From a virus: a stretch of DNA of 58,448 nt. The notes below the pieces were generated by a model that was not told the origin of the DNA, made no database searches, and saw only the letters and a list, made by a program, of their open reading frames with translations. Of this stretch, positions 9,898-45,221 are shown in pieces. The stretch's first letter is position 1; each line of letters begins with the position of its first letter. The stretch is from positions 1-58,448 of IMG/VR virus record IMGVR_UViG_3300029716_000017; one strand, written 5' to 3'. A program made the translations under genes and the position numbers.

Positions 9898-10587
9898 TTA
9901 AAATGGACATTCATCCTTTGCTCTCAACTGCCATTCCACTCCGGCTCTTGCAACGTCCACATTTGCGTTTTTAGCCACTTCGCATATCTCAGCAACCATT
10001 CTGTCAGCATTGCTTGTATCAATGCCCAAATGGCACAATATGACGTTCTGTAGGTTATCTGTAGCATTTACCCTAACAAATTCCTTGCAAGTAGCTAATT
10101 CACAGTGGCCAAGTATCTTATGAGTGTAATTCGGAGCATCAGTATCGACCATATCTTTGATGTAATTACATTCGATTAACATATGGTCAATATTTTGCTT
10201 TTTAAATGTCATTGGGCAATACTCAAAATCCGTCATGTACAACATTTTTTGCCCATCAACCTTGATCAAAAAACCGTAATTGGGAGTGCCGTTGTGTGGG
10301 AGAGAAAAACAACGAATTGTAAACTCTCCCATTTTTACAGCCTTACTAACAGATTCAAATGGTTTCCACACTGATATACCCAGTTTTTTCAAATCAACTG
10401 CTGCCCTGATGTGGTCTCCATGAGCGTGACTTATAATGACACCAGCAACATCTTTAATATTGTAATCAAGACCTCTCTGTATATCTTTAATTGACACTCC
10501 ACAATCAAGGATAAGCGTTTGATTATTTGCATTTGTGAGTAAATAGCAGTTGCCAATGCTACCACTGGATATACATTTAAGCTTCAT
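9898..10587 (-). CDS. MBL-fold metallo-hydrolase (putative recombination-associated nuclease)
   Basis: HAHGDH motif. The start is trimmed to MKLKCISSGS. Confidence 0.7.
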   Translation of the reverse strand: MKLKCISSGSIGNCYLLTNANNQTLILDCGVSIKDIQRGLDYNIKDVAGVIISHAHGDHIRAAVDLKKLGISVWKPFESVSKAVKMGEFTIRCFSLPHNGTPNYGFLIKVDGQKMLYMTDFEYCPMTFKKQNIDHMLIECNYIKDMVDTDAPNYTHKILGHCELATCKEFVRVNATDNLQNVILCHLGIDTSNADRMVAEICEVAKNANVDVARAGVEWQLRAKDECPF

Positions 10588-10589
10588 TC

Positions 10590-10790
10590 CTACGCCTCGA
10601 TTTTTTCTAATGGGCATTTTTCATGTCTTTTGCCATCTCTAATCTCAAAAGATACGTCTGAACATTTGATCTGTTTCAATTCCATAAGTTTACATTTAAA
10701 ATCTAAAGAACACGGGGCAATATACCATGCCCTGCACTCCTGACAGTTACTAGGCATTTTGTCCCAATATATTTCACACTTTGCTTTCAT
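10590..10790 (-). CDS. Small Cys-rich hypothetical protein
   Basis: The start is trimmed to MKAKCEIYW, preceded by AAAGGAG. The longer track ORF overlaps the recT-like gene. Confidence 0.4.
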   Translation of the reverse strand: MKAKCEIYWDKMPSNCQECRAWYIAPCSLDFKCKLMELKQIKCSDVSFEIRDGKRHEKCPLEKIEA

Positions 10791-10806: not shown

Positions 10807-11817
10807 TTACTTTGCAAACTCTGGTACTTCTTCGTCCTCAGCAAATTCCTGTGAATTGGCATTCTCAGCAATCTCAGCTTGCGCAACTTGATATACCTCG
10901 TCCATTTCAATCTGTGCCTGCCTTGCCATCGGATCATAATTCTTTGGATACTTTCTTATTGCATTGTTGCACATTTTTCTTTGAATCATGCTTTCCGGCG
11001 TATCAAGCCAAGCGCCACTGATAAACGGTCTCGCAAGCTCGCATTCCAACATTTCATCTACGGTTTTACAAGTTCTTAAGGCATTAAGCACTTCATCTTT
11101 TTTTGCCTTAATCTCTGACTTTTGTTTTTCTGTAGCCTTATATCTGTCGGCACAAATCCCAAATGTGCTATTCATCATATTTTGCTTAACATGTGCAAGC
11201 AAATTAACCTTAACACTATCCCTGTCTGCAGAAAGGTATGTCACTGTTCCGTCCAACAGTTTGACAGGATATACGACTCTTACTGCTTTACTTGATAGTC
11301 CCTTTTCTACCCATTCAGGCTCTGTAATCGACAACCCTTTATGCTTTGGTGGAATATATTCATCGCCCTCTTTGATTACCCAGTACGGGTAGACCTGTTC
11401 AACGTCTTTTCCATAGTTGGCAAGTAAGGAGTCGTAACCACTACCCTCGATTCCCATCTCAACCTGTTTCTGCCATATATCCTTGCCTGTCTGTGGATCG
11501 GTTCCTACCTTTACATTTCGTAGCTGGAAGTAACACTCCCTTGGATATGCGCTTGCATTTAATTTGAGACTTGCACATCGCTTCACAATTCCTCTCAAAT
11601 TGCTTGTATCAAGGTTGCCCATGTTAATCTTAGGGTCGTTCTTGACAAGGTTGAATATGCTTGTCATGGCTTCCATGGCGCACTCTTTGGCATAATCGTC
11701 CATATCCATGCCAACAGTTTTGTAATCATCAATAATAAGCCCTGTTATTGCATTGCTCCATTCACTTAATGAAGTAGTAAATGCTTTTTTTTCTGCAATT
11801 GTCGTACTATTTTCCAT
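10807..11817 (-). CDS. RecT-like single-strand annealing protein
   Basis: Size, an acidic C-terminal tail, internal patterns (LKLNASAYPRECYF, GIEGSGYDSLL, MIQRKMCNNAIRKYP) and its neighbourhood (SSB, ATPase, nuclease). Confidence 0.55.
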   Translation of the reverse strand: MENSTTIAEKKAFTTSLSEWSNAITGLIIDDYKTVGMDMDDYAKECAMEAMTSIFNLVKNDPKINMGNLDTSNLRGIVKRCASLKLNASAYPRECYFQLRNVKVGTDPQTGKDIWQKQVEMGIEGSGYDSLLANYGKDVEQVYPYWVIKEGDEYIPPKHKGLSITEPEWVEKGLSSKAVRVVYPVKLLDGTVTYLSADRDSVKVNLLAHVKQNMMNSTFGICADRYKATEKQKSEIKAKKDEVLNALRTCKTVDEMLECELARPFISGAWLDTPESMIQRKMCNNAIRKYPKNYDPMARQAQIEMDEVYQVAQAEIAENANSQEFAEDEEVPEFAK

Positions 11818-12051
11818 TTATTTATCCTCCTCATGTAGTACTTCTTTTAAAATTTCTGCAATAATTTTTTTCTTGACTTCCCTGGCTTCTGCCTCAATCT
11901 CATCATAAGTCTTTTTTGAGTTTTTAATAACCTCTTCAAACTCATCCTCGCTTATATGCTCACGTAAAGATTTAAGTAATACTGCTGTCTCAGCTGTAAC
12001 TTCATTCTTGGAACCATTGATTTCAACAAACCCTTTGTCGCACTTAACCAT
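11818..12051 (-). CDS. Hypothetical protein
   Basis: 77-aa charged ORF. Confidence 0.4.
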   Translation of the reverse strand: MVKCDKGFVEINGSKNEVTAETAVLLKSLREHISEDEFEEVIKNSKKTYDEIEAEAREVKKKIIAEILKEVLHEEDK

Positions 12052-13096
12052 ATTTATTTCTCCTTGTTTTACTTGATTTATTTAACAATTTCTCTACATA
12101 TTCATCCATGGAATGACACAATTTTACACAGTTACCATGTAGCATATGATTCTTCAAAGCACCATATTTTTCATAGAACTTTTTCTCTGTCATCTTGCCG
12201 TTATTAACAAGTTCTGCCCAGGCTTTTATTTTCTTATAGATTTTACGTTTACTTGTGCTATTTAATTTTCGTATATACTTTCCATCTTTCGTTACATAGT
12301 GATGGAAACCTGTAAATAAAATTCCGTTTTTAAATGGAACTATCTGTGTCTTGCCATTAAGTGATAATCCCAGGCTCGCTACAAATTGATTTATGCAATC
12401 CAGACAATGTTTCAAGTATTCTTTGCTTGGTGCAATCAGATAAAAATCATCCATGTATCTACCATACAATTCAATTCCCAGCTCACCTGTTATAAAATGA
12501 TCTAACCCATTTAGCATAAGCAACGCATATACTTGCGCAACCTGATTGCCAAGTGGCAGTCCTAAGCCATCAGTGCTGTCAATGTATAGATGATTCAACC
12601 ATTTTGTATATTCGTCATCAAAATAGTAATCGACTATATCTTTCAACACTTCATGATCTATCTGATAGAAAAATTTTGTAACATCACATTTCAAAATCCA
12701 ACCGTCAAGACCGTGCTCTTTATAAAATTCAAGCATGTGTTCTTTCAAACAATCCATGCCAAAGTGGGTTCCTTTGCCGAGTTGCCCTGCGTAGTTTGTT
12801 TTTATAAATTCATACTTCAACCTTGGGAGCAAAATATTGTCACATAAGCAATGCTGAACTACCTTATCTTTGAACGAACACGACTTAATCACTCTTTCTT
12901 TAGGTTCGTAGACCTTAAATTCATTATACGGATTCATCCGATATGTCTGATTTTCAAGTTGTTCTTTCAACATATGAAGTCCCTCAAGACTCATTGCTTC
13001 AAATTTTGCAGTGCTTGAATTATGTTTTTTGCCACTTTTAGCTTTTTTATATGCTTTATACAGGTTCCCATAATCACATATAATATCTTTATCCAT
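12044..13096 (-). CDS. DGR-type reverse transcriptase
   Basis: YMDDF catalytic box and a GLPLGNQVAQVYALLMLN motif (DGR-type LGNxxSQ-like). It lies adjacent to the TR and Avd. The ATG at 13096 is preferred over the GTG at 13141. Confidence 0.85.
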   Translation of the reverse strand: MDKDIICDYGNLYKAYKKAKSGKKHNSSTAKFEAMSLEGLHMLKEQLENQTYRMNPYNEFKVYEPKERVIKSCSFKDKVVQHCLCDNILLPRLKYEFIKTNYAGQLGKGTHFGMDCLKEHMLEFYKEHGLDGWILKCDVTKFFYQIDHEVLKDIVDYYFDDEYTKWLNHLYIDSTDGLGLPLGNQVAQVYALLMLNGLDHFITGELGIELYGRYMDDFYLIAPSKEYLKHCLDCINQFVASLGLSLNGKTQIVPFKNGILFTGFHHYVTKDGKYIRKLNSTSKRKIYKKIKAWAELVNNGKMTEKKFYEKYGALKNHMLHGNCVKLCHSMDEYVEKLLNKSSKTRRNKYG

Positions 13097-13194
13097 AGTA
13101 AAAATTCCTTTGTATTTATCCTTTCGGGAAAAGTCACACACTTTTTTGTATCTTTATCTGATTTCGGCTTAATGCCTACTCTTACTGTCTGTGT

Positions 13195-13271
13195 GATACA
13201 GAATGGGCGAACACCGTTGTTGTTGTTACAGTTGTTGTTGTTGATATTGCCAGCGGACGAAACAACGGTTT
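13195..13271 (-). repeat. DGR template repeat (TR), 77 nt
   Basis: Non-coding sequence between avd and the RT. The coding-sense sequence is AAACCGTTGTTTCGTCCGCTGGCAATATC(AAC)4TGT(AAC)4GGTGTTCGCCCATTCTGTATC, which matches the two VRs except at adenines. Confidence 0.9.
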
Positions 13272-13293
13272 ATACAGTGTGTAACCTATATTT

Positions 13294-13686
13294 TTATTTA
13301 CTGTCATTACTTGCCAATCTTTTCTTGTCGCCTGTTCTCCAAGCAATTGCCATATGCTTAACATCGGCTACCATTTTCGACCAGTATTCCATGCTTTTCA
13401 CATTGATAATGTTTAATTTCATTGATAATTCAATGTAAAACAAAAGTTCATCGCAATGCGTTATAGCTTTTGTTTGCAGTTCTGATCTCTCTTCAAGGCA
13501 AGTTTCCCAATTTGTCCTATTTGCTTCATACAAATATTCATATATTTCCAATGCCTTATTCTGCATTTTGTCAACAAGCGAAAATCTGTATTTCTTTGGG
13601 TATCTATTACAATTTGAAGTTATACGGAATGTGTGTTCAGCCAAATTCTTTGCCTGTGAAATCACTCCAAACTCTTTCTCTGCCAT
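13294..13686 (-). CDS. avd: DGR accessory variability determinant (Avd, four-helix-bundle family)
   Basis: 130 aa with FRITSNCNRYPKKYRFSLVDKMQNKALEIYEYLYEANR, typical of Avd. It sits between the target gene and the TR. Confidence 0.75.
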   Translation of the reverse strand: MAEKEFGVISQAKNLAEHTFRITSNCNRYPKKYRFSLVDKMQNKALEIYEYLYEANRTNWETCLEERSELQTKAITHCDELLFYIELSMKLNIINVKSMEYWSKMVADVKHMAIAWRTGDKKRLASNDSK

Positions 13687-13691
13687 ATCAT

Positions 13692-14300
13692 TTAATCTCC
13701 TGATTCAAAGATTGAAGATGAGAAGATACAAACTGGGCGAACACCGAAGTTGCAGTTACAGTAGTTGCTGCGGACATTGCCAGCGGACGAAACAACGGCA
13801 ACGGCTCTTTCGTAATCGTTGCATGGTGTACTCCAAGGACTGACAAGCCACCACCAATAATCTTCGGTGTTTGGTATGAGACTTCTATACTTTCTGTATT
13901 CGTCAACAGTAAGAAGAGAAACCTTATCCTCACACTTGCCATATTCTGTCTGACCGTCAAGAGATAAAAGATTTCTCTCAAACGAAATTATATTTTTCGA
14001 TCCTATTTCTGCAGCCATCTTCTCAAAAAACACTCCATTAAGATAGCCACGAAGATCACTGTTTTCCCAATTGTTTGAATCTGAATCAAACTCCATATCT
14101 TTAATGCTATCAGCCAGACAAATATATCCAACACCTGTGATGTCAAGAATCTTCCACGTTGTATCTACAAGTTCAAATGTATCTCCAATACCGAGTCCTT
14201 CCGGAAGATTGATTGACTTTGAAGTTGTCTTTAACACTGCAATCTCGTTTCTGAGATCATTAATCTGTTCCTGCAACCCTCTCATTGTTAATGTTGCCAT
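13692..14300 (-). CDS. DGR target protein B (C-terminal variable region)
   Basis: 202 aa. The C-terminus is ...DYWWWLVSPWST...AVVSSAGNVRSNYCNCNFGVRPVCIF. VR1 covers the last 24 or so codons before the tail. Confidence 0.8.
   Translation of the reverse strand: MATLTMRGLQEQINDLRNEIAVLKTTSKSINLPEGLGIGDTFELVDTTWKILDITGVGYICLADSIKDMEFDSDSNNWENSDLRGYLNGVFFEKMAAEIGSKNIISFERNLLSLDGQTEYGKCEDKVSLLTVDEYRKYRSLIPNTEDYWWWLVSPWSTPCNDYERAVAVVSSAGNVRSNYCNCNFGVRPVCIFSSSIFESGD
13725..13801 (-). repeat. DGR variable repeat VR1 (77 nt)
   Basis: It differs from the TR at 12 positions, all TR adenines, in the first 60 nt. There are also 2 non-A differences in the 3-prime 17 nt. Confidence 0.9.
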
Positions 14301-14302
14301 AA

Positions 14303-14911
14303 TTACTCTCCTTTCTTTGATACAAAGATATTAGATTTTAAGATACAAACTGGGCGAACACCGTCGTAGTCGTCGTAACAGTCGTTGTCGCCGAAATCGC
14401 CAGCGGACGAAACAACGGCGATGCTATAACTACAACCTCTTTCCTCAGTGCTCCAAGGAGTACATGTCCACCACCAATCGTCCAAGTCCTTATTAGGAAG
14501 TAAGTTGTTGTACTTCCTAGCCTCATCAAAAGTGATAGGTCTTACCTTGCATTTACAATCATCAAATTCATGCTGCATATCAACTGATGTTAACTCAACA
14601 GTATGCTCAACGAGATTGTTTTCCCCAACCTCTGACTCAATTATCGGCTGAATCTTATCTTCAATCATTTCCTTAAGATTAGATTTGTTGTAATCTCTTG
14701 ATGTCTCATCATAAACTACATTTTTGGCCATAAAGTTCTTAGAAATAATTTTGACCTCAGCCCCTATCTGTTCAAGCACAATAAAGTCATTCTTCCCAAT
14801 CTCAAACACATCTCCAGGTGCTAAGGTTGATAATTCTACCTTGTTCTTTCTTTCTGCTTCTTCAAGCTGCCTTACAAGTTCTCTTGCTACTTCTAATGCC
14901 TTACTCATCAC
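14303..14911 (-). CDS. DGR target protein A (paralog, C-terminal variable region)
   Basis: 202 aa. The C-terminus is ...DDWWWTCTPWST...AVVSSAGDFGDNDCYDDYDGVRPVCIL. Confidence 0.8.
   Translation of the reverse strand: MMSKALEVARELVRQLEEAERKNKVELSTLAPGDVFEIGKNDFIVLEQIGAEVKIISKNFMAKNVVYDETSRDYNKSNLKEMIEDKIQPIIESEVGENNLVEHTVELTSVDMQHEFDDCKCKVRPITFDEARKYNNLLPNKDLDDWWWTCTPWSTEERGCSYSIAVVSSAGDFGDNDCYDDYDGVRPVCILKSNIFVSKKGE
14342..14421 (-). repeat. DGR variable repeat VR2 (80 nt, one codon longer than the TR)
   Basis: 13 substitutions, all at TR adenines, plus one extra NAC codon after the conserved TGT. Confidence 0.85.
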
Positions 14912-16824
14912 ATTACCTCCAATTCCTCGTTGTCGTTTACGGCAAGCATTATTATCTGACCATCTACCATATCTACAGCTTTCTGCTGATTTGCAGAATC
15001 AAGACTCTCTGCATCATCAAGCCACATAGGACAAGCAACATTACTAATCTGTTGAATACTGTTGCAAATATCAATCCTACCAATAATCCTATTTCCCTTG
15101 TTACTCATCGTGGTAAGAATACTCTTCCCGTCTATAGTAGGAATACATGTTGACTTATATCCGCCGTTTTTAGCAAATTCAAATAGCTGCCACTTTACCA
15201 AATTAAAATGTTTGTTTATTTCATTTGTGAGAACTTCATTTTTAGCCTTATCAAGATCATCTAACAAATCAAGAATCTTCTGTGCATCCGTTTGAGCCTG
15301 TCCAAGATTGCGCTTATTAGCCAGCAACTCTTCAAGCCTTGTTTCGTCAGCTTCTGTATCAGACTTAGCGATCTTGGCTTCGCACTCAGCTAACTCCTGC
15401 CTGAGTGTGGTCTCTTCGGATTTTAGTCTCACCCTTGTGGCTGTTGTCTCCATACCAGCCATATTGATTTCAAGTGCTTCTATCTGCGCCATCACGCCGA
15501 TATATTCATCAGCACCCGATATGTCAATGCATAATGGAAGTGCGTTATATTCTTCTTCAAGCTTGGTAAGCTTTGCTCCTGTATCAGCAACAGTCTTTCG
15601 ATTGAATTCATTGCAATTTTTAAGTTTTTCTATGCGCTCCTCAATCTCCTTGATCTTCTGAGCTATGGCCTTGCCATCAGTCTCAATTACTGTCAGTCGC
15701 CCGGCTTGATTCTGTGCAAAATTACTCTTAAGTCTTTCGATATCTTCTGCCGGAAATTCTCTATGGCAAGTCGGACACACAGAAGTAAGTTCGTTAAATT
15801 TCTCAGCATTAACGGATTTCCATTCAGCAACAAGTTTTTCCTTCTTTGACCTTAAAATACCCAAAGTTCTTGTTGATTGGTCGATATCCCAATCGTTATC
15901 AGAAATTCCCTGGATTACACTCATCTGAGTAGTCTTGCAATCATCTATCGCACTTCTAAGTGCTGCTCTCTTGCAATCAAGATCCTCGTTCGCCTTATTC
16001 TGCATTGCGGATATTTTGAATTTTAACTTTAGAATCTTATCTGCAATTTTGTCATGTTCAGCAGCTACCTTATCCATGTCCAGCTGATCTTCCACAACTT
16101 TGCTCAACTTTTCTTTAATTGCATTTTTCTGCAATTCCAAGGCGGATATATCTAGTGACTGTTTGATCTGTATATCTCTTTCCTTTTCTGTTATCTGTCC
16201 GTCAAGAACTGGTAACTCCTTTGCAACTTTGGACTTTGTGGCTTTATTCATTGCTGAAAGCTCGTCTGCCGTATACTTCTCAAGGAGTGGAACAAGTTCA
16301 GTAAGTTCAACTTTGCTTTTTGCAACGTCAACGTCTGATATTCCATCTACCAATCCAAACAGAAACTCTCTCATTTCTGCCGGTTTCTTTGCTAAAAATG
16401 CATTGATGTTACTACACATCTTGAGGATAAACATATCAGCGCCAAGATATGCATTAAAATCCCTTAATGTCTTAGGCACATCATTGATTGAATAGGAATT
16501 ATCATCCTTGTAACTGCTGCCATCTTTGCTATATTTCCTCTTCTGAGACTTACGCATGACGACTTCCTTGCCGTCAACGTCAAACACAGCTGTGACCGAT
16601 ACGTCTGTGTCATCCACAGTTTTGCCACCAACCATACGACGAATAGGTGGATTATCGGCGAGCTGATAATCACAGTTGAATAACAGCCACATGTAAGCGT
16701 TAGTTATTGAGGATTTCCCTTTGCCATTGGAAGCGGCAATCTTAGTATTATCCCCAAAAATAATTTCCTTATGCGCATAACACATGAAGTTTTCTAAAAT
16801 TAACTTTTTCAAACTGATTCTCAT
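14908..16824 (-). CDS. Rad50/SbcC-like AAA ATPase with zinc hook
   Basis: Walker A SNGKGKSS, long coiled-coil, central CPTC hook and C-terminal WLDDAESLD. Confidence 0.7.
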   Translation of the reverse strand: MRISLKKLILENFMCYAHKEIIFGDNTKIAASNGKGKSSITNAYMWLLFNCDYQLADNPPIRRMVGGKTVDDTDVSVTAVFDVDGKEVVMRKSQKRKYSKDGSSYKDDNSYSINDVPKTLRDFNAYLGADMFILKMCSNINAFLAKKPAEMREFLFGLVDGISDVDVAKSKVELTELVPLLEKYTADELSAMNKATKSKVAKELPVLDGQITEKERDIQIKQSLDISALELQKNAIKEKLSKVVEDQLDMDKVAAEHDKIADKILKLKFKISAMQNKANEDLDCKRAALRSAIDDCKTTQMSVIQGISDNDWDIDQSTRTLGILRSKKEKLVAEWKSVNAEKFNELTSVCPTCHREFPAEDIERLKSNFAQNQAGRLTVIETDGKAIAQKIKEIEERIEKLKNCNEFNRKTVADTGAKLTKLEEEYNALPLCIDISGADEYIGVMAQIEALEINMAGMETTATRVRLKSEETTLRQELAECEAKIAKSDTEADETRLEELLANKRNLGQAQTDAQKILDLLDDLDKAKNEVLTNEINKHFNLVKWQLFEFAKNGGYKSTCIPTIDGKSILTTMSNKGNRIIGRIDICNSIQQISNVACPMWLDDAESLDSANQQKAVDMVDGQIIMLAVNDNEELEVM

Positions 16825-21244: not shown

Positions 21245-22288
21245 TTAATCCACCGCCTTTCTAGCACTAAGTCTCCCACTCCATGCACCATTAAATGTAA
21301 GTTCATTTTGATAAGCCTTAATTTTTGCTGTTGAACTATTGGTTTTAATCAGATTGAATAAATCCCCAGCATCTACGCTAGGGTCTCCACGCCAACTTAT
21401 TGAATAATCAACTGCGCCTAGATAATAATTCGCTAACCAATCATCAAGCAAACTAGCTACTTCTGTGCTATCAACAAGTGGATTATTCCAATTAACTGTT
21501 TTAGTTCCGCTGCTATTGTATCTATGGGTTAATCCTTTAGCATCCACTACATATTCATATCCACTGACTGTGTACGTAAGTGTTGTATCTTTTTCAGTTA
21601 GACCATCAAATTTTAGCATGCAGTAATATGCACCGCTCTCTGTAACTGTAACTGTCACATTACTTGCATCGGTAACGGCAGTATAGCCATGACTAGGTGT
21701 AGTTATATCGACTTTTACAACATTATCGTTTGAATTGACAGTAATTTTTTCAGACACCAGTTCTTTTTTGCCAGTGCCAGGCTTATATGTCTGTTTTTGA
21801 ACAGTAATTGACTTTAGTTTATCTTGCATCGTAATGGTTGGTGCGTCAAACATATCATCTTCGGACAGTTCATAGTCGGTTGCATCACCAATTCCGATAT
21901 AGTCAACCGATACTCTTGCGTATGGTTCAGCTTTTGTAAACTCAACAACGACTCTATTTGCAGATCCATAGCGGTTGTAATTTTCCCAACTAAGGCTATC
22001 TACGTCAGTGACAATAACATTATCAACAAGCGTATCATTATCATAAGTTTTTATTGTAAACTCAAGAGGTTTACAGTTTCTAAAATTAATTATAAATCCA
22101 TACCAACTGTAAGATATATCTAAATTGAGAGTAATTGTAGGATTTGTAGAAAACTCACCAATGCCGTTTGCTATTTCCTTGCTTACATATCCTACTTCTT
22201 TATATATTTTGTTTTTAGGTAAAAAACAAAGGTTACCACTGTCAAGTCGTGAAAAACCCGTGCTGCACATTGCGTAAGCTGTTTTCAT
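21245..22288 (-). CDS. Putative tail fibre / receptor-binding protein
   Basis: About 347-aa beta-rich ORF in the distal tail block. Confidence 0.45.
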   Translation of the reverse strand: MKTAYAMCSTGFSRLDSGNLCFLPKNKIYKEVGYVSKEIANGIGEFSTNPTITLNLDISYSWYGFIINFRNCKPLEFTIKTYDNDTLVDNVIVTDVDSLSWENYNRYGSANRVVVEFTKAEPYARVSVDYIGIGDATDYELSEDDMFDAPTITMQDKLKSITVQKQTYKPGTGKKELVSEKITVNSNDNVVKVDITTPSHGYTAVTDASNVTVTVTESGAYYCMLKFDGLTEKDTTLTYTVSGYEYVVDAKGLTHRYNSSGTKTVNWNNPLVDSTEVASLLDDWLANYYLGAVDYSISWRGDPSVDAGDLFNLIKTNSSTAKIKAYQNELTFNGAWSGRLSARKAVD

Positions 22289-22303
22289 GCTCTGCACCTT
22301 CTC

Positions 22304-22795
22304 CTATTCTACGCATAAGTCCATCGTGAACGAGTGTTTTTCACCGGGCTGTAATGTTACCGGTTCAATAACCTCACGTGCCAACATTATTGCTCCCGTG
22401 AAAGCACTTGCATAACTCGCATATAATCCAACCTCTGATATGGTTAGTGGTGCATTGCCTGTGTTTCGAATGACTCTAGTTATGGTCATAATAGAGCTTG
22501 AGAATTTCAGTGGCACATCTTTAGTTTGTGTGATGATCTCATAGTCTTCTGTCACATTTTCAAGCTTTATATCTGCCGCTGTTGCTGGTGTTGTGCCTGC
22601 CCCTAACACTATATAAACTCCGGTTGTGGCTGAGCTAGGCGCATTTTTTAAAAGCAACGATGCACCAAACAGCTGTCTAAACCAAGAGTAACTTGCGCTA
22701 GCTGTTTTATTTTCTGTGGTTTTACACACAGTATAATTGCCTGAAACCAGTTGACAGTTTAGGCTGACAAGACCGGCGAAATTATTTGTCAACAT
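22304..22795 (-). CDS. Hypothetical tail protein
   Basis: 163-aa ORF preceded by GGAGGAAG. Confidence 0.4.
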   Translation of the reverse strand: MLTNNFAGLVSLNCQLVSGNYTVCKTTENKTASASYSWFRQLFGASLLLKNAPSSATTGVYIVLGAGTTPATAADIKLENVTEDYEIITQTKDVPLKFSSSIMTITRVIRNTGNAPLTISEVGLYASYASAFTGAIMLAREVIEPVTLQPGEKHSFTMDLCVE

Positions 22796-22811
22796 ATATA
22801 TACTTCCTCCT

Positions 22812-23168
22812 TTAATCCAATGTATTATCTATCTTGTGTGTCACTCGGCACTGCACCACACCGGATATCATTGTTGTGCTTAATATCTGAGAGTTCGATG
22901 TACCTGTCGGTATCTTTCCAATATTCTCCGCCATTGTGTCAAATGTATCTGTCGCCTCTGTCACTACGCCCTTATCAGTGATAGCACTGGCGACCTTTGA
23001 CTTGCCATCACTGACAGATTTTTTTACTTCTGCAATTTCATCTGATATTGTTTTTATACTTTTGTCTATCTTGTCCATGTCTCCTGTGTAATCTGTTCGC
23101 CAATCTGGAATATCATCATTACCGAATTGGCATAATCCAAGATTCTCCGTTTTATTTTGCGATGCCAA
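22812..23168 (-). CDS. Tail-fibre-like coiled-coil protein
   Basis: ENLGLCQFGNDDIPDW...MDKIDK and GKSKVASAITDKGVVTEATDTFDTMAENIGKI motifs, seen in phage fibre proteins. TTG start. Confidence 0.45.
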   Translation of the reverse strand: MASQNKTENLGLCQFGNDDIPDWRTDYTGDMDKIDKSIKTISDEIAEVKKSVSDGKSKVASAITDKGVVTEATDTFDTMAENIGKIPTGTSNSQILSTTMISGVVQCRVTHKIDNTLD

Positions 23169-23183
23169 AAAATCACCTCTCTA

Positions 23184-24476
23184 CTATTTAAGTTTAAATT
23201 TTGCTTGTGTAGCATACTCATAAGCTGTTAATTTATATGAATTATACTTGCTTGCTGTCAGCCTTAACATTGCGTATTGCTTGGCTGTCAATGCTCCGTC
23301 ATCGTCATGTAATACACTACCTATATCGCTATAATCCAACTGCCCATTTGATGATATTGTTTTTGTGGGTGTAATTGCGGACTGTATGTGAATCCTATTA
23401 TGCCTGTCAACAGACAAAGTACATCTACCGGCATTAGCAATAATTTGCAAACATTCCGCATGTGTAGCAACCGGTAACGGATTGTGTGTTACAGTATTTT
23501 TAAGAAAATTATCAAGAAAATAGTTACTACTGTCTGTAATTCCTGCATCTGCCAATACTAGCAGTGCCAAATCGTACAAGCTAATCCCATTTGCATAATA
23601 CTGACCTTTATAGTATTGCCCGGTTAACAATGTAAATCTATCTGTAGCATTAAATGTCGCTTCTCTACTATTTGCCGACCATTTTGACAGGTACGTTGTT
23701 TGTTCTGGTAGCCATTCAATGTTGCCCTGTCCGTCTACATCATAGCCAAACTGTACTTTAACCTCTTGACCAATTTCCATATACTGTATTGCGCTATCTG
23801 GATTGTCCGGATCGTAGTATTGATCTTGATTATCAACTTTAATCATAACATCCATTGATGGTATGGTTTCTGCTATTGGAGATACATATTCTTTGCTACT
23901 GTAGTCCATTACCTCTTCGTTGGTAAATGTTTTGGCAAGCCCACACTTAAATGAGTATATTCTTAATCTATTTTGTCCATAGCGCATTTGGGTTGGCTCG
24001 ATTGTTATAAAAGTTACGCCTGTAAAAACCTCTTCGGTTATCCATACTTCATCAGCGTTTCTATAATGACTCGTACCATTATTAGTAATAACATCAAATT
24101 CAGTTGGGTAGCATTCCCCAAAATTGATAGTTAACCCCTTGATAGTATGTGGATTAGCAAATGTCATTGTAACTATCCCTGTAATATCCGCAGTTACAAT
24201 ACCATTGTTATAGTAATCAGTACCAGTTCTAGGCAAGAAAAAAGCATTGCCATCAAGGACAGCAACGCCAGGTTCTGCTGTAGCATATATTCTAGTTACT
24301 TCTTCGCCATCAAAAGGAGCAGTATTGTTAGAATATGCCACTGTTTGTATTTGCTTATCTAGTTTTACCTCATTTTGAGCTTGAGAATTGACTAGTCCTA
24401 TTGTTGCCTTAATGTAACCCCTATTGCGGTTCATAGACTTCATAGATTTCTTATATTCATTGCTTACGTTCTGCAT
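23184..24476 (-). CDS. Tail tip / baseplate protein (Tal-position)
   Basis: 430 aa, second gene after the tape measure. Confidence 0.5.
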   Translation of the reverse strand: MQNVSNEYKKSMKSMNRNRGYIKATIGLVNSQAQNEVKLDKQIQTVAYSNNTAPFDGEEVTRIYATAEPGVAVLDGNAFFLPRTGTDYYNNGIVTADITGIVTMTFANPHTIKGLTINFGECYPTEFDVITNNGTSHYRNADEVWITEEVFTGVTFITIEPTQMRYGQNRLRIYSFKCGLAKTFTNEEVMDYSSKEYVSPIAETIPSMDVMIKVDNQDQYYDPDNPDSAIQYMEIGQEVKVQFGYDVDGQGNIEWLPEQTTYLSKWSANSREATFNATDRFTLLTGQYYKGQYYANGISLYDLALLVLADAGITDSSNYFLDNFLKNTVTHNPLPVATHAECLQIIANAGRCTLSVDRHNRIHIQSAITPTKTISSNGQLDYSDIGSVLHDDDGALTAKQYAMLRLTASKYNSYKLTAYEYATQAKFKLK

Positions 24477-24880: not shown

Positions 24881-27800
24881 CTATGCTGTTGTAAATTGAT
24901 GACCGTTACGTGATCTACGCCTATCCGTTTCACTGACAAGGGTTCGACCATCAATATTGATAGATGTATCTTTATCTGCTGTTTCCCTTGTATTCCGGGC
25001 AATTTGGGAGAGATAAGGCGTAAGTGCGTCATCAACTGCTTGCCTAACTCCACTTGCTATACCGGCGGTAATCTGTTCGTTGTTTGCAACGACAGACTTT
25101 CCGTTGTCAAACTTACCCATTATCTCACCTTGGTTTGCACGGAACCATCCGTCTTCTGGGAATCCTCCGGTTGCATAAGTTGGCATGAAACTAAAAGTAC
25201 CAGACATCGCTTGCTTAAGTGGGTCTGATGCTTGCTTAACATTGAATTTTATTTCTTTTTGGGACATACCCATGAAAATTTTGTTTGCGGCATTTTCACC
25301 AAGTTTTTTTAAGCCCTCATCTGTCTGCGTCTTAATATTGTACTGTACACTTTTGCCAGTAAAGTTCTTTTGCAATGTATCGTTAATTGACTTAACCGCA
25401 CTACCGCTAGTTGTTGGCTTGCCGTTAACAGCGGTATTTGCATTATACTTAACTGTTTTATCTTTCCAGTACCGACTGAAAATATTGGATATGCTAGAAA
25501 GTTTTTCACCTGTAGTTGCATTTTGACCGTTTATAGCGGTTTGCGCATCATACTTAGCACTCTTGCCTTTCCATACAGATGACCACCGATTAACTATTCC
25601 GGATAAGATGCTGCTACTTGGTGTATTTTGTCCATTTGTGGCGGTTTGCGCATCGTACCTAGCATTCTTGCCTCTCCAAGTATCGGCCCATAATTTTCCT
25701 ATATTTCTTATGGTCGCTACGTTGTCTGTCTTATTATCATTTACTGACGTGTCTACGTTGTAATCAACGTTTTTCCCACCAAAAATTGAGATTGCACCGC
25801 GAACTGATTTATTCAGTTTTTTATAGTCTTTATCAGTCTTTCCATTGGTGGTCGTATCAATATTAAACTTGCTGCTTATAATTCCTGATAATCCAACTAT
25901 AGGGCTTGTTTTCATTCCGAATTTTGCAACACTGCTTAATTTGTCCGCAATTTTCTTGAGATATCCCCAAAGCGTTTTCAATTTCTCGGTAATTGAATTT
26001 AAAACAGGCTTAATAATATCCCATGCAATTTGAACTTTTGCACTTATATCCGCAATTTTTTTAACAATCCAGTTACCAATTAATTGCCGAATAACTGAAC
26101 TAATTGCTGATGCAACAGCCAATATAGGTGAAAGCACAGTTTTTATTGAATTTAATGCCGGAGAAATTTTTTCACCTATTGCATTGGCAACTTTTGAAAT
26201 AACCGAATAAACCGTACTTAACAAATTTGAGACTGTGCTTAATGTGGGTTTTAATACTGTTACAACCTTATCTGTATATGGAGACAACTTGCCCACACCA
26301 GATTTGATCTTGTTGATTATATCTACAATTAAATTCATTGGTGCAATAATATATTCAAGTGCTTTTTTTATGCCCTTGAATAATTTGGAATTGGATATTT
26401 TGCTATATGCACCTTCTCCAAATACCTTATCAATTATTGCTTGGCCTACACCTTCATATATTTGCATTGGAATCTTAGGTATTTCCTTGGCCATAGTAAT
26501 AATCAAAGAACCAAGGTTCCAAACAAGGCTTCCCCAATTGATACCACATATAAAATCCACAACTTTTTGACCAAGTTTTTGCCAGATGCCGTCTTGATTA
26601 ATAGTCTCAAAAGCACTAACTATTGTCTTACTTATTCCTATTGCAAAGTTAGATAAGGTTGCTCCTGTAAGTCCAGCGTCCCATGTGTTAAGAAATCCAG
26701 TTATTGAAGATATAAGCGATTTACCCAAGTTTTTCCAATCAAAATTGATTGCAAAAGTATTTCCAGCAGTAAGCGCTGTATTTATTGCGCCGGCAATTGT
26801 TGAACCAAGATTAGAAAACAATCTCGGAGTAATGAGGCCATTCAAGAAGTCGGCAAGTCCTTTACCAAAATTTTTTGCCTTTTTGTATACCTTATTCCAC
26901 TTAATAGATTCCATTGCCTTAGACAAACTATCACTGATATACTTGCCTAATTGGTTAAGGTTCTTGATGCTAGACTTGTAAAGTCCCTCTGTTTCTTTTA
27001 TTTGGTATTTAAGTCCATTGTTGCCACCAGCACCGCTTACACCAGTGCCTCCACCAGAACCACCACCACCGTTTGTGCCTGTGTCTTTATCCGGTTCGAC
27101 CACGTTCAACTCATCAATACCAAGAAGATGTGTTTTTAAATCTTTGGCCGCTTTAGCGGCTTTTTTAGTTCCGCTTGCCATATCATCAGCAGCACCGGCA
27201 GCACCTTCAAAATCATCAGATATAGAACCCTTTTGTATCTCTAGTTTCCATCCAAAAATTGCACCAAGGGCATTTACAACTTTTTCGGAAAAAGTGTAAA
27301 CCGCCGATAAAGCCTTATTAAGAGCCTGTACAAGCGGTTTTAACATATTGACAAATGCATTACCCCATACGCCAGCAACTGCCTTTATTTGTTCCTGTAA
27401 GATACGTAACTGGTTAGCCCATGTCTGGCTAGTACGTGCAAAATCCCCTTGTACATTCTTGGTGTTATCCATGACATACTGGTATCTCAGCATCGTTTTT
27501 TCAAGCTGAGTCATAGAGGATATGTTGGCATCAAGACCTTTTTTCATTGCATACTCTTTGAGGGTTGCGTTAGTAAGGTCAATACCAAAAGCTCGCATAG
27601 GCTCTGTCTCGCCAGTAAAGATTGACCATAATTTACGAGAACTTTCTTCCTGTGAGATATTATAGAAAGAGGCTAAGTCTGCCGATAATGCAGTAAGCTG
27701 TATTGACATATCAGACATATCTTTAACAGGCGCACCCATAGCAAGTCCCATAGCCTGGAATCTGCCAGCTGTTTGCTTTGCAGATAATTCTGACATTCCA

Positions 27801-28885
27801 TACATCTTTATTGATGTTTTGGAGAATTGCTCCAATTTGTCTGTGTATTGACCGAACGTATTAACAACGACATTCTGCACTTCAGTAAGATCAGATGAAA
27901 TGTCTATGGCTTTTTTGAATCCACTTAATACTCTTTGTGCTGCCCAAAATGTTGCATACAGTTTTCCAACTGCTGAAGCAAGACTCCATATATGTTTTTT
28001 AGCGCTTTTAGCACTGCTGCCCATACCGGAAAAACTGTTTTGTATACCTCTGCTCGCACTTGCTGTCCTACTTCCTTGTGCTGCCAGATTTGCAAGTGCA
28101 TGAGTCATTTGTATTACATTCTGTGATACTTGTGGCGCTGTAGCCATAACTTGCATAAACTTCTTAAGTTCTGCTGCAAGTGCCCCCAGTCCACCTGCTG
28201 TTTGTGTGGCTTTTACGCCCACTGATGCAAGATTACCAAGTGCAGTGGTCATCTGTATTGTTCCAGCGGATAATTGTGGTGCAAGCGCCATGGTATTAAA
28301 CAGATTGCGAAGCGTAACGGACAACTGTGGCAATGCTGCTGATACGATACTTGCTTTTTGCCCAGAATTTGCAAGTCTACCAACTGCATTGGTGAGCTGT
28401 ATTACATTTGTGCTAACGTTCTGTGCACCCTGTAACGTGCTAGATAAGCCTACAATTGCATTTCCAAGTTGGCCTATAGCATTTATATTCATGCCGTTAA
28501 TGTTCGAATTAGACAGCCTTGTAATGGAATTAATGAAGTTCGTAAGGCCCTTGTTGTTGAACTGCATGTTTCCTAATACTGATATACTGGAGGCAAGTGG
28601 GCTTATGCTATTTGCAACCGCTGTAAGTTTTGCGCTGTTGATGTTTTCAAATTGCTTTATACCCTTGGCAGCTCTGTTAAAATCAGGCATTTTTACATTT
28701 TTTATTGCATTCATGCCCTGTGCAAGCTGGTTCATGCCCTGTGCAAACTTGGCTATACCATTACTATCAATTCCTTGCAATGTCTTAGACAGTGTGCCGA
28801 GCTTATTTGACAGTTTATCTACTGCATTAACTGCTTGAGTTGCACTTGCATGTATTTTAACTTCAAGATTATCTACTGTTGCCAT
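24881..28885 (-). CDS. Tail tape measure protein
   Basis: 1334 aa, helical and low-complexity, with a Gly-rich tract (GGGGSGGGTGVSGAGG) and tandem repeats of about 37 aa. It sits in the position after the chaperones. Confidence 0.85.
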   Translation of the reverse strand: MATVDNLEVKIHASATQAVNAVDKLSNKLGTLSKTLQGIDSNGIAKFAQGMNQLAQGMNAIKNVKMPDFNRAAKGIKQFENINSAKLTAVANSISPLASSISVLGNMQFNNKGLTNFINSITRLSNSNINGMNINAIGQLGNAIVGLSSTLQGAQNVSTNVIQLTNAVGRLANSGQKASIVSAALPQLSVTLRNLFNTMALAPQLSAGTIQMTTALGNLASVGVKATQTAGGLGALAAELKKFMQVMATAPQVSQNVIQMTHALANLAAQGSRTASASRGIQNSFSGMGSSAKSAKKHIWSLASAVGKLYATFWAAQRVLSGFKKAIDISSDLTEVQNVVVNTFGQYTDKLEQFSKTSIKMYGMSELSAKQTAGRFQAMGLAMGAPVKDMSDMSIQLTALSADLASFYNISQEESSRKLWSIFTGETEPMRAFGIDLTNATLKEYAMKKGLDANISSMTQLEKTMLRYQYVMDNTKNVQGDFARTSQTWANQLRILQEQIKAVAGVWGNAFVNMLKPLVQALNKALSAVYTFSEKVVNALGAIFGWKLEIQKGSISDDFEGAAGAADDMASGTKKAAKAAKDLKTHLLGIDELNVVEPDKDTGTNGGGGSGGGTGVSGAGGNNGLKYQIKETEGLYKSSIKNLNQLGKYISDSLSKAMESIKWNKVYKKAKNFGKGLADFLNGLITPRLFSNLGSTIAGAINTALTAGNTFAINFDWKNLGKSLISSITGFLNTWDAGLTGATLSNFAIGISKTIVSAFETINQDGIWQKLGQKVVDFICGINWGSLVWNLGSLIITMAKEIPKIPMQIYEGVGQAIIDKVFGEGAYSKISNSKLFKGIKKALEYIIAPMNLIVDIINKIKSGVGKLSPYTDKVVTVLKPTLSTVSNLLSTVYSVISKVANAIGEKISPALNSIKTVLSPILAVASAISSVIRQLIGNWIVKKIADISAKVQIAWDIIKPVLNSITEKLKTLWGYLKKIADKLSSVAKFGMKTSPIVGLSGIISSKFNIDTTTNGKTDKDYKKLNKSVRGAISIFGGKNVDYNVDTSVNDNKTDNVATIRNIGKLWADTWRGKNARYDAQTATNGQNTPSSSILSGIVNRWSSVWKGKSAKYDAQTAINGQNATTGEKLSSISNIFSRYWKDKTVKYNANTAVNGKPTTSGSAVKSINDTLQKNFTGKSVQYNIKTQTDEGLKKLGENAANKIFMGMSQKEIKFNVKQASDPLKQAMSGTFSFMPTYATGGFPEDGWFRANQGEIMGKFDNGKSVVANNEQITAGIASGVRQAVDDALTPYLSQIARNTRETADKDTSINIDGRTLVSETDRRRSRNGHQFTTA

Positions 28886-44669: not shown

Positions 44670-44743
44670 TGGCAGAGATGGGATTTGAACCCATGACCTC
44701 TAGCTTATGAGGCTAGCGAGCTGCCAGACTGCTCTACTCCGCG
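44670..44743 (-). tRNA. tRNA-Met (anticodon CAT), initiator-like acceptor and D-stem features
   Basis: Hand-folded: CGCGGAG TA GAGC AGTCTGGC AGCTC G CTAGC CTCATAA GCTAG AGGTC ATGGG TTCAAAT CCCAT CTCTGCC A. No CCA is encoded. Confidence 0.85.
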
Positions 44744-44981
44744 TCATTATACATACGGCATACTATATAGCCGCATGCCGGGGCTTGTGATTATTTACTC
44801 TGGGAGGAGTATTCGACCGCCTATACGGCTACAGTTGGCATTCTGTAGGCTGATTTTCGCAAAACACTCACCGGATCTGGTGACGGTCCTTTATTCAGCA
44901 TTCCGCTAGTGAGTGAAAGGAGCACAAATGAAACAAACATTTGTCCGGTCAAGGTAAAAGAATTTGAAAACCTTAACCGCA

Positions 44982-45054
44982 TGAACGATATGGGACTCGA
45001 ACCCATGGCCCATAGATTAAAAGTCTATTGCTCTCCCAACTGAGCTAATCATTC
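44982..45054 (-). tRNA. tRNA-Lys (anticodon TTT)
   Basis: Hand-folded: GAATGAT TA GCTC AGTTGGG AGAGC A ATAGA CTTTTAA TCTAT GGGCC ATGGG TTCGAGT CCCAT ATCGTTC A. Confidence 0.9.
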
Positions 45055-45149
45055 ACATTCGCCTTGTATGGTCTCAAGGCTCCCATGGTTAGTCATGGTG
45101 GACTGTATAGGTGGAAAGGCTACTTGCGACAACTGCCTATACTCAGTAG

Positions 45150-45221
45150 CGGGGCTAGTGGGATTTGAACCCACGGATGCAGGAGTCAAAGTCCTGTGCC
45201 TTACCACTTGGCGATAACCCT
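45150..45221 (-). tRNA. tRNA-Gln (anticodon TTG)
   Basis: Hand-folded: AGGGTTA TC GCC AAGTGGTAA GGC A CAGGA CTTTGAC TCCTG CATCC GTGGG TTCAAAT CCCAC TAGCCCC G. There is a 1-72 A/C mismatch. Confidence 0.85.

Follow-up and report, generated by a model that had tools for sequence, protein, structure and literature searches.

Evidence for a complete diversity-generating retroelement with two tandem DUF6273 targets in a tailed gut phage

The stretch of viral DNA analysed here (58,448 nucleotides, referred to below as the window) very probably carries a complete diversity-generating retroelement (DGR) belonging to a temperate-type tailed phage of gut, Lachnospiraceae-like hosts. The cassette lies on the minus strand, and all five of the parts proposed for it in the initial annotation were found at the coordinates given there; each of them, when tested, behaved as expected of a DGR. 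In coding order these are two tandem target genes, A (14303..14911) and B (13692..14300), with one variable repeat each (VR2 at 14342..14420 in A, VR1 at 13725..13800 in B), a gene for an Avd-like accessory protein of 130 residues (13294..13686), a non-coding template repeat (TR, 13195..13270, with boundaries set from relatives) and, beyond a spacer RNA (13097..13194), a DGR-type reverse transcriptase (RT) of 350 residues (12044..13096).

Three copies of the repeat, one TR and two VRs, were recovered mechanically, and the anchors GTTGTTTCGTCCGCTGGC and GGTGTTCGCCCAGTTTGTATC each occur three times in the window, the expectation from shuffled sequence being 0.03 and 0.00 respectively. The TR body reads ACC..GGC AAT ATC (AAC)4 TGT (AAC)4 GGT.., and its first 60 bases contain 22 adenines, as originally counted. 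A recount also agreed with the 12 adenine differences reported for VR1 and with the lack of any other difference ahead of the last 17 nt, within which VR1 departs from the TR at two non-adenines (T to G and C to T). For VR2 the 13 adenine differences reported could be reproduced, but only by introducing a 3-nt gap that had gone unmentioned; this is needed because VR2, with the boundaries then used, is 80 nt long and the TR 77 nt, the central TGT being followed by five NAC-type codons in VR2 and by four AAC codons in the TR. It had further been suggested that three adenines at the 5' boundary might lie outside the TR. This is so for 13271, where the VRs carry T or C without exception, but 13270 and 13269 are inside and of the mutagenised type, all four bases occurring there in the VRs of relatives; the 5' boundary of the TR is thus at 13270. 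Over the interval thus refined (13270..13204, comprising 22 adenines and 45 other bases) VR1, which has the same length as the TR, differs at 11 adenines (Fisher p = 5e-7) and VR2, with its one 3-nt insertion, at 12 (p = 1e-7), while neither differs at any of the 45 non-adenines.

A family comparison covering 135 TR-VR pairs from 74 related loci, 8582 positions in all, gives the same picture: 1419 of 2565 adenine positions differ (55%) as against 40 of 6017 non-adenine positions (0.66%), so that the VR differences are adenine-specific. It might be argued that no retroelement was involved at all, and that the repeats are a motif of paralogous genes together with a pseudogene fragment, shaped by ordinary mutation and diversifying selection. 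The two targets are indeed paralogues, being 33% identical, and nothing further speaks for such an origin, which is wildly improbable given the restriction of differences to template adenines (odds ratio 185 over the 8582 positions), the position of the non-coding TR between Avd and a DGR-type RT, and its conservation in the face of VR variation: loci L001-L027 have the same TR, or very nearly, whereas each VR is different. In addition, non-adenine substitutions in the TR reappear in the cognate VRs, for instance GTTGCCCCGGCTGGC in L028-L031. Taken with the turnover of VRs in close relatives described below, the conservation of the TR and the confinement to adenines effectively refute a non-retroelement origin of the repeats.

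At their 3' ends the repeats show an asymmetry of the IMH/IMH* kind, the last 9 nt forming the IMH*-type end of the TR (13203..13195) and the IMH-type ends of VR1 (13733..13725) and VR2 (14350..14342). The initial annotation had placed this difference at two sites, of which 13201 stands as near-fixed (C in 72 of 74 TRs, T in 127 of 135 VRs), but 13203 is G, T or C among the VRs. Downstream homology between TR and VR stops after TGTATC, and no GC-only segment of 14 bp of the BPP-1 type is present at the repeat end. Since A13204 is a variable adenine site in VRs, C13201 is near-fixed and A13197 is never mutated in any VR of the related loci, the copied information can be taken to end, on the 3' side, no more than 3 nt from the base predicted to be templated first.

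The length of the VRs also varies. In 18 of the 135 it departs from that of the TR, by multiples of 3 nt that always fall within the AAC blocks, and such VRs, which are dispersed across the family, still show differences at A sites only; an extra codon like that of VR2 is thus a recurrent feature among these relatives. The same phenomenon was reported by Wu, Zimmerly et al. in 2018 (PMC5758913), who proposed template slippage, and as here their indels of multiples of 3 nt lie beside AAC repeats and in one target only. What differs is that the frequency can here be measured within one lineage (18/135 VRs, with a span of -2 to +3 codons) and that one of the cases, L018, falls among near-identical relatives and has an unchanged TR. 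Slippage on (AAC)n tracts, occasionally gaining or losing whole codons, would account for VR2 being one codon longer than the TR. A different source of the length variants, namely changes in AAC copy number in the TR itself (by replication slippage, followed by homing and later reversion) or misaligned 5' integration of cDNA, has perhaps one chance in four of being correct: TRs of unusual length do exist, with (AAC)6 in block 1 of L020 and (AAC)5 in L047, whose VR matches it in length. Against this, the TR layout is 4+4 in 72 of 74 TRs whereas the VRs span -2, -1, +1, +2 and +3 codons in either block, VR1 of L018 gained a codon while its TR is the same as in relatives at 0.4% divergence, and both VRs of L020 are one codon short of their own TR.

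Both VRs have recently turned over in close relatives. Loci L017, L019 and L022, which share the architecture described here, show 5-6 differences in 2759 flanking positions and 26-29 in 92 positions of the VR zones, in both targets; divergence is thus 0.2% in the flanks and about 30% in the variable zones of near-identical relatives. For the clone itself, six assemblies with an identical RT are available from different samples and projects, and they are identical over the 2868 nt of the cassette, both VRs included. No VR turnover is therefore seen in this clone at the consensus level among the six, and current activity here is unproven. These identical contigs, together with the unequal lengths of VR2 and TR, would fit a cassette that is a DGR by descent but is now dormant or only very rarely active, its VRs being frozen products of the past and VR2 perhaps no longer an efficient acceptor. 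We consider this rather unlikely, as all the parts are intact (the catalytic motif of the RT, Avd, the A-rich TR, in-frame VRs and IMH-type ends), minority variants would be hidden in consensus assemblies, VRs of altered length, found here and there in the family, still differ at A sites only, and the close relatives turned over both VRs at so small a flank divergence. We infer that the cassette of this particular clone is active at the present day.

The RT contains the YMDD and LGNQVAQ motifs that had been read from its translation, and matches Pfam RVT_1 and PHROG 1423 (E = 4e-102). The initial annotation would have counted an RT outside the DGR clade against its proposal; as it turns out, the best relative of known structure is the DGR enzyme of Bordetella phage BPP-1 (bRT, PDB 8ub7, E = 3e-35 over residues 5-291), group II intron RTs following at about 7e-9 and group II intron and retron RTs at about 1e-8, and on sequence similarity the RT may be assigned to the DGR clade. 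In LGNQVAQ an alanine takes the place of the serine of the canonical motif 4, [LIV]GxxxSQ, with the glutamine kept. The motif is conserved in 79 viral relatives, all of which have this alanine, while in more distant genome relatives the position is occupied by N (47), S (23), A (7) or G (1), and it is therefore variable in this branch. The Avd-like gene was correctly identified, matching PHROG 3206 (‘Avd protein of DGR’) with E = 1e-19; scores against NCBIfam DivGenRetAVD (44.6 bits, cut-off 80) and Pfam bAvd (24.9 bits, cut-off 40) stay below threshold and, like the alanine in the RT motif, tell against the reading proposed here. An Avd homologue stands beside the RT in 74 of 80 distant genome loci.

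Covariation among the relatives reveals an ordered RNA around the TR. A long-range stem, whose 5' strand (GGTTACACACT, 13276..13286) lies just upstream of the TR and whose 3' strand (13142..13132) lies in the spacer, encloses the TR and comprises 11 pairs, 8 of them with compensatory changes and 99.6% of cells paired. Within it, the end of the TR, TGTATC (13200..13195), and its complement in the spacer, GATACA (13152..13147), form a helix of 6 bp that is 98.6% paired with little variation. The observed pairing values were reached in 0 of 500 shuffles. The spacer contains in addition an invariant hairpin, GGC-loop-GCC (13176..13166), with GAAATCAG after it, and, beyond the long-range stem, a small covarying hairpin (13129..13119) that precedes an A-rich tail and the ribosome-binding site of the RT. 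By analogy with BPP-1, GATACA/TGTATC may be the template:primer duplex, with A13147 as the putative priming nucleotide. Downstream of the VRs, no stable GC-rich hairpin or cruciform was found (DNA folding z-scores +0.57 for VR1 and -0.15 for VR2); there are only weak AT-rich stems, one of which (TCTTTG/CAAAGA, 6 bp, following VR2) is missing from some relatives.

The spacer resembles the Rfam RNA RT-2 (RF03077) at 23.6 bits (E = 0.0012), short of the gathering score of 40, a level that was reached at none of 11 related loci. Both RNAs lie between the repeat and the RT gene, and both have AGUAGGC-loop-GCCGAAAUCA as well as a small hairpin with UAAAUA after it; the Rfam model, however, has no counterpart of the long-range stem formed here with sequence upstream of the TR. 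Weinberg et al. (2017), in whose RT-motif series RT-10 is the BPP-1 spacer, speculated that such RNA motifs are part of DGRs.

The cassette anatomy, the RNA covariation and the boundaries of information transfer are established directly by this analysis, and a mechanism can be proposed on the basis of homology with BPP-1. The RNA running from the end of avd through the TR and spacer would fold so that the 11-bp stem closes round the TR and the TR 3' end pairs with GATACA. The RT-Avd complex would then prime cDNA from the spacer adenosine beside this duplex and copy the TR with misincorporation opposite adenines, after which the cDNA would supplant the homologous VR in one or other of the tandem paralogous target genes, at the gene's 3' end. 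Some 6e11 different peptides would be possible per target, the diversity presumably being confined to a beta-hairpin of 12 residues, on a C-type-lectin-like domain, round a fixed cysteine.

Each target consists of some 200 residues, with the VR at the C-terminus. Target A has 201-202 (gene callers start it at ATG 14908, giving 201) and an N-terminal helix, and matches Pfam DUF6273 at 29.1 bits (E = 1e-6; cut-off 23.5) and PHROG 9958 with E = 3e-32; for target B, of 202 residues, the corresponding figures are 42.3 bits (E = 9e-11, same cut-off) and 1e-46. The DUF6273 matches end in both at residues 192-193 of 202, the VR being C-terminal. In the AlphaFold2 model of target B (pLDDT 86) VR residues 175-186 are predicted to form a surface beta-hairpin (strands 176-180 and 184-187). 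Foldseek searches with this model found DUF6273 phage proteins (E = 1e-8) and DUF1566 (2e-3) in BFVD; in the PDB a domain of the T. ramosa IgA peptidase came first (E = 1.7e-6), C-type lectins were matched only at E = 0.03-1, and Mtd did not appear among the best matches. These lectin matches are weak. Assignment of the C-type-lectin fold leans mainly on the literature.

The targets probably act in binding a ligand or receptor, but position lends no support to a receptor-binding role on the virion, since the genes around the cassette are those of recombination and replication rather than of the tail: an SbcC-like gene lies to one side of it and RecT, MBL and SSB genes to the other, the lysogeny switch is about 5 kb away and the tail module far off. 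Two unrelated prophage backbones have the same two-target cassette, likewise in their early or replication regions, and in the targets no virion-anchoring domain can be recognised, the only other feature being the N-terminal helix. It is accordingly conceivable, though we think it improbable, that neither diversified protein is a virion receptor-binding protein and that both are non-structural, early-expressed binders, giving the DGR a function other than tropism switching. That they might act, for example, on factors of host defence, on those of the host surface or on competing elements is a shade less likely again. If true, this would mean that a phage DGR is used for something besides receptor switching. 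DUF6273 domains are known, however, in annotated receptor-binding, tail-fibre and Hoc-like proteins, the literature reads small DUF6273 targets as Mtd-like binders, and, DGR cassettes being mobile modules, the place where one sits does not have to mirror its function.

The unit of two tandem small targets of putative lectin fold, Avd, TR and RT is conserved across unrelated Clostridia prophages, among which, as far as examined here, no cassette was located in a tail module. Its occurrence in the early or replication region of three different phage backbones is the one mildly unusual feature. The initial annotation over-stated the novelty, as this type of cassette is abundant (547 RT relatives in IMG/VR) and present in the literature; it illustrates cleanly a kind of DGR already described from gut phages, and both tandem small DUF6273 targets and their C-type-lectin-like fold have already been published.

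Compared with the prototype, the mtd-avd-TR-brt cassette of BPP-1, whose RT is the closest solved relative, the order of target, avd, TR, spacer and RT is the same; A-to-N differences are likewise found at TR adenines only, the target carries its VR C-terminally, and the repeats end with an IMH/IMH*-type mismatch. The order of RNA elements known from cryo-EM work (primer duplex, 11-bp stop duplex, short hairpin, adenosines) is matched as well, the long-range stem being the counterpart of the avd:Sp ‘cPRT Stop’ duplex. The differences are that there are two targets in tandem rather than one, that TR and spacer are shorter (76 against 134 nt and 98 against 140 nt), that the GC-rich IMH segment and the stable post-VR hairpin are both absent, that the target is a 202-residue DUF6273 protein outside the Mtd fold family at sequence level, that the RT motif is LGNQVAQ instead of IGSLTSQ, and that the cassette sits in an early or recombination region instead of at the end of the tail operon.

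Closer parallels are the gut-phage DGRs with DUF6273 targets, namely the nd4/nd12 ‘tgt2’ proteins and tentaclins (Baykov et al. 2023, PMC10743442), the Faecalibacterium prophages Lelie, CP11, Roos and Pioen (PMC11792537) and the Toutatisvirus hotspot (bioRxiv 10.1101/2024.10.15.618418). The portions of these sources consulted contain no discussion of a position in a recombination module. They describe, as here, a VR at the C-terminal end of the DUF6273 domain, two targets per TR, and phages of human-gut Bacillota, and also a C-type-lectin-like fold on whose surface the VR forms a beta-hairpin, as is predicted for the present targets. In them, however, one target is large (an Ig-domain ‘tentaclin’ or Hoc-like) and the other small or distant, whereas in the present cassette both are small single-domain paralogues that directly follow one another ahead of avd.

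The initial annotation had laid the cassette out in five parts on the minus strand, and this layout was reproduced by reading the minus strand of 11800..15200 together with the ORF list: target A (14911..14303, 202 aa), target B (14300..13692, 202 aa), Avd (13686..13294, 130 aa), the template repeat (TR), and a reverse transcriptase (RT) carrying YMDD and LGNQVAQ motifs (13096..12044, 350 aa). The 197-nt gap between the Avd and RT ORFs holds no credible gene. The RT matches Pfam RVT_1 and PHROG 1423 (4e-102), and its best relative among all solved structures is the enzyme of the diversity-generating retroelement (DGR) of Bordetella phage BPP-1 (8ub7, E = 3e-35, residues 5-291), with group II intron and retron RTs at 1e-8 to 1e-9. 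NCBIfam is without a DGR-RT model, and its best match to the RT, a group II model, lies far under the cut-off (92/300 bits). The LGNQVAQ motif aligns with IGSLTSQ of the BPP-1 enzyme, bRT; the Ser-to-Ala difference is present in 79/79 viral relatives, while in more distant genome relatives the same position may be N, S, A or G, so that it is variable in this branch. Among species-representative genomes the closest RT is that of an Agathobacter MAG (79% identity), followed by those of other Lachnospiraceae. Avd matches PHROG 3206, “Avd protein of DGR” (1e-19), and also NCBIfam DivGenRetAVD and Pfam bAvd, in both cases under the cut-off; a PDB sequence search with Avd alone gave no match.

A mechanical repeat search found a single three-copy family, comprising the TR (13195-13268) and the variable repeats of target B (VR1, 13725-13798) and target A (VR2, 14345-14418). 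Each of the two conserved anchors within the repeat is present in exactly three copies over the 58 kb (shuffled expectation 0.03 and 0.00), so there are no further VR copies or targets in the window. The adenine-difference counts of the initial annotation were recovered, and once the repeat boundaries are adjusted according to relatives, the differences from the TR come to 11/22 adenines and 0/45 other positions for VR1 (Fisher p = 5e-7), and to 12/22 and 0/45 for VR2 (p = 1e-7). Both repeat sequences had been written out, but the difference in length between VR2 (80 nt) and the TR (77 nt) had been passed over: 3′ of the central TGT, four AAC codons in the TR correspond to five codons of NAC type in VR2 (TAC GAC GAC TAC GAC). 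As to the 5′ edge, where some boundary adenines were thought possibly to lie outside the TR, the 61 loci with two VRs bear this out for 13271, which is A in every TR and T or C in every VR, but not for 13270 and 13269, directly before CCG, which carry all four bases in VRs; 13269 encodes the Ala/Thr/Ser position preceding VVSSAG in the target protein. At the 3′ end, A13204 is variable in VRs (A 46, G 75, T 14) and A13197 is invariant. One of the two differences proposed to separate IMH from IMH* is near-fixed, 13201 being C in 72/74 TRs and T in 127/135 VRs, but the other, 13203, is polymorphic among VRs and hence unreliable as an IMH marker. All this confirms that the window carries a clean, complete DGR, as originally proposed.

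The RT has 547 relatives in IMG/VR, of which 80 loci were fetched for comparison, and almost all of these share one arrangement, in which the TR precedes the RT by about 120 nt and two VRs lie another 530 and 1150 nt or so upstream. Over 135 TR-VR pairs, adenine positions differ in 1419/2565 cases (55%) and non-adenine positions in 40/6017 (0.66%), an odds ratio of 185, the changes comprising 760 A>G, 529 A>T and 130 A>C. Non-A substitutions in a TR are mirrored in its cognate VRs (e.g. in L028-L031), and across L001-L027 the TR is identical or one base off, while every VR is different. In three close relatives (L017, L019 and L022) the flanks differ at 5-6 of 2759 positions and the VR zones at 26-29 of 92, in both targets; judged from sequence, the VRs have been rewritten recently, repeatedly and specifically at adenines, which is the hallmark of mutagenic retrohoming. 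The exact RT of the window is encoded by six contigs of different sample origin, and their cassettes are identical over all 2868 nt, VRs included. On this comparative evidence DGR activity demonstrably belongs to the lineage, and given the six identical assemblies it is not extended to the window's own clone.

In one of the fetched loci, L040:190-300 (IMGVR_UViG_3300029480_000186), the repeat that occupies the place of the TR is bordered by TR-type flanks and has an IMH*-type end but seven A-to-N changes, reading AAT GTC AGC ATC AAC AAC TGT TAC TAC GAC ATC; apparently the template has itself undergone adenine mutagenesis, or a VR has been copied over it. Another, L001:1-1800 (IMGVR_UViG_3300045988_056330), contains three VR copies 617 nt apart plus the TR, and the number of tandem targets is therefore three or more. 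In the middle target the upstream sequence is of target-B type and the downstream sequence of target-A type, and its VR is one position off the next copy, which suggests a recent duplication or gene conversion.

Differences in length of the kind seen in VR2 recur in the lineage, where 18/135 VRs (about 13%) are off the length of their own TR by −6, −3, +3, +6 or +9 nt, three outliers being 5′-anchoring artefacts or a probable frameshift. Without exception the change lies inside the first or the second AAC block, and every other difference is still at an A site. The TR itself has a 4+4 layout in 72/74 cases, the exceptions being (AAC)6 in L020 and (AAC)5 in L047. Such a length change could arise in the TR or in the copying from it, and the locus L018 bears on the choice: its VR1 is longer by one codon, yet its TR is that of L017, L019 and L022, from which its flanks diverge by only 0.4%. 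An unchanged TR among near-identical relatives makes a change of the TR the less favoured explanation, and these sequences favour an error in reverse transcription or integration. Wu et al. (2018; PMC5758913) reported that TR and VR differ in length in 7% of DGRs and that 74% of these indels adjoin AAC, most in-frame indels falling in their “Lineage 4-related” group, and proposed template slippage, a model also cited in a 2026 study; the lineage-level data support this published idea. In a separate case, L052, VR-A and VR-B have a common mutated 5′ half (CTT ATC TGC TTC AAC) and differ in the 3′ half, one of them being a codon short, a pattern that 3′-to-5′ partial conversion following target duplication would give.

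The RNA around the TR was analysed in an alignment of the region from the end of avd to the start of the RT gene in 23 loci of the window's own RT clade. It contains an 11-bp long-range stem between GGTTACACACT (13286..13276, just upstream of the TR) and AGTGTGTGACT (13142..13132, in the spacer), with compensatory changes in 8/11 pairs and 99.6% of cells paired (counted for this named structure over the 23 loci); no shuffle equals the observed values, and slid controls fall to 29-46% pairing. TGTATC at the end of the TR (13200..13195) forms a 6-bp helix with GATACA of the spacer (13152..13147), with 98.6% pairing and little variation. An invariant GGC-loop-GCC hairpin, then GAAATCAG, lies at 13176..13158, and a covarying small hairpin at 13129..13119 precedes an A-rich stretch and the RT ribosome-binding site. 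For the AAGG of that site, CCTT (13133..13130) was considered as a pairing partner and set aside, as this pairing competes with the well-supported long-range stem. In the cryo-EM structure of the BPP-1 RNA there are a duplex of TR end and spacer (the template:primer duplex), an 11-bp duplex of upstream sequence and spacer (“cPRT Stop”), a short hairpin and adenosines, and the elements in the window come in the same order; the covariation lends support to a BPP-1-type RNA architecture in the DGR of a Bacillota phage. If priming proceeds as in BPP-1, it would start from A13147, and the first base to be templated would be at about C13201, in agreement with the 3′ limit seen for the transferred information (between 13204 and 13201). 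The spacer also has a sub-threshold match (23.6 bits, E = 0.0012) to the Rfam RT-2 RNA, which is among the RT-associated motifs described by Weinberg et al. (2017) and speculatively placed by them in DGRs; since this match is sub-threshold and none at gathering level was found in 11 relatives, the spacer is not assigned to RT-2.

Both targets, which are 33% identical to one another and have more than 4,400 homologues, score above the Pfam gathering threshold for DUF6273, the matches stopping at the VR. An earlier AlphaFold2 model of a target was discarded (pLDDT 54, from a shallow alignment of 32 sequences, mostly ≥86% identical); with a more diverse alignment the model of target B reached pLDDT 86, and has an N-terminal helix (residues 6-26) and a compact alpha/beta domain in which the variable residues 175-186 form a beta-hairpin around the invariant Cys181. 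In Foldseek searches with this model the viral library returned DUF6273 phage proteins (E down to 1e-8) and DUF1566 proteins (2e-3), while the best PDB match was a Thomasclavelia ramosa IgA peptidase domain (9qa6, E = 1.7e-6, TM 0.57), many C-type lectins ranking behind it at only E = 0.03-1. PDB sequence searches, with target B alone and with a family profile, gave no meaningful match. The model data are compatible with a lectin-like fold, for which the case comes mainly from published analyses of DUF6273 (PMC10743442 among them).

The window derives from a tailed phage with nearly all genes on the minus strand. The cassette is flanked by an SbcC-like gene (16824..14908, minus strand, from domain and PHROG searches); downstream of it come a 77-aa ORF, a RecT-like gene, an MBL-fold hydrolase and an SSB, and a Bro-N/ORF6C gene and a divergently oriented HTH gene are a few kb away. 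Candidate tail genes (21245..24476; PHROG 13879, function unknown) and a 1334-aa ORF (24881..28885) are far from the cassette. Homologues of target B on contigs of 0.4-0.56 Mb suggest prophage integration. Tblastn against 80 distant genome loci found Avd with the RT in 74/80 and DUF6273 targets in 70/80, and the SbcC-like gene in 0/80, the 77-aa ORF in 0/80 and RecT in 1/80; Avd and the targets accompany the RT and the neighbours do not, and the cassette is thus a self-contained module. The 77-aa ORF (11818..12051, minus strand), which overlaps the RT stop codon by 8 nt and is kept in close relatives, was rejected as a DGR accessory gene on account of this absence from the distant loci, and is part of the RecT backbone. 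The same unit recurs in two prophages with unrelated backbones (L167:9001-11759 and L168:9001-11760), of which one has a portal of P22 type and the other a portal of SPP1 type; there two tandem DUF6273 genes (about 200 and 170 aa), Avd (124 aa) and RT (342 aa) lie among early/replication genes, upstream of the packaging genes. The two-target cassette occupies early/replication regions in three different backbones. On the usual assumption its two small, tandem, lectin-fold targets would bind a receptor or ligand on the virion; with lower probability, these early-region proteins may have a non-structural role. In the GenBank phage collection a single distant fragment, MT839962, resembles the cassette (69% identity).

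Some other features of the window may be recorded here. The MBL-fold hydrolase (9898..10617, minus strand) is found three genes downstream from the cassette, at a distance of about 1.4 kb; PF23023 (Anti-Pycsar_Apyc1) is in the precomputed Pfam list for the identical gene of related contigs, and a Pfam scan of the window's own gene gave only Lactamase_B families at E ≤ 0.001. On the plus strand, opposite to nearly all the phage genes, 49740..49807 matches the type II hammerhead ribozyme (RF02276, 48 bits against a gathering score of 37, E = 8e-7), and a tRNA cluster of Met(CAT), Lys(TTT) and Gln(TTG) is at 44670..45221 on the minus strand.

AAC-linked in-frame indels (PMC5758913) and the surrounding RNA elements are already published, and the general picture of what DGRs are is unchanged by this cassette. 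What is gained is a clean, complete example in an abundant gut-phage lineage and, for specialists, a measured frequency of VR codon-length change within one lineage and, alongside the covariation support for the RNA architecture, a testable prediction of which adenosine primes (13147) and where templating begins (about 13201). Relative to BPP-1, the TR and spacer are shorter, the two targets are in tandem and the cassette is outside the tail operon; BPP-1 has a GC-only IMH segment whereas these repeats have none, and no significant BPP-1-like hairpin was found downstream of either VR. DGRs with DUF6273 targets have been reported before from human-gut phages, namely nd4/nd12 (PMC10743442), Faecalibacterium prophages (PMC11792537) and Toutatisvirus (10.1101/2024.10.15.618418), with a lectin-like fold, a VR forming a beta-hairpin and one TR serving two targets.
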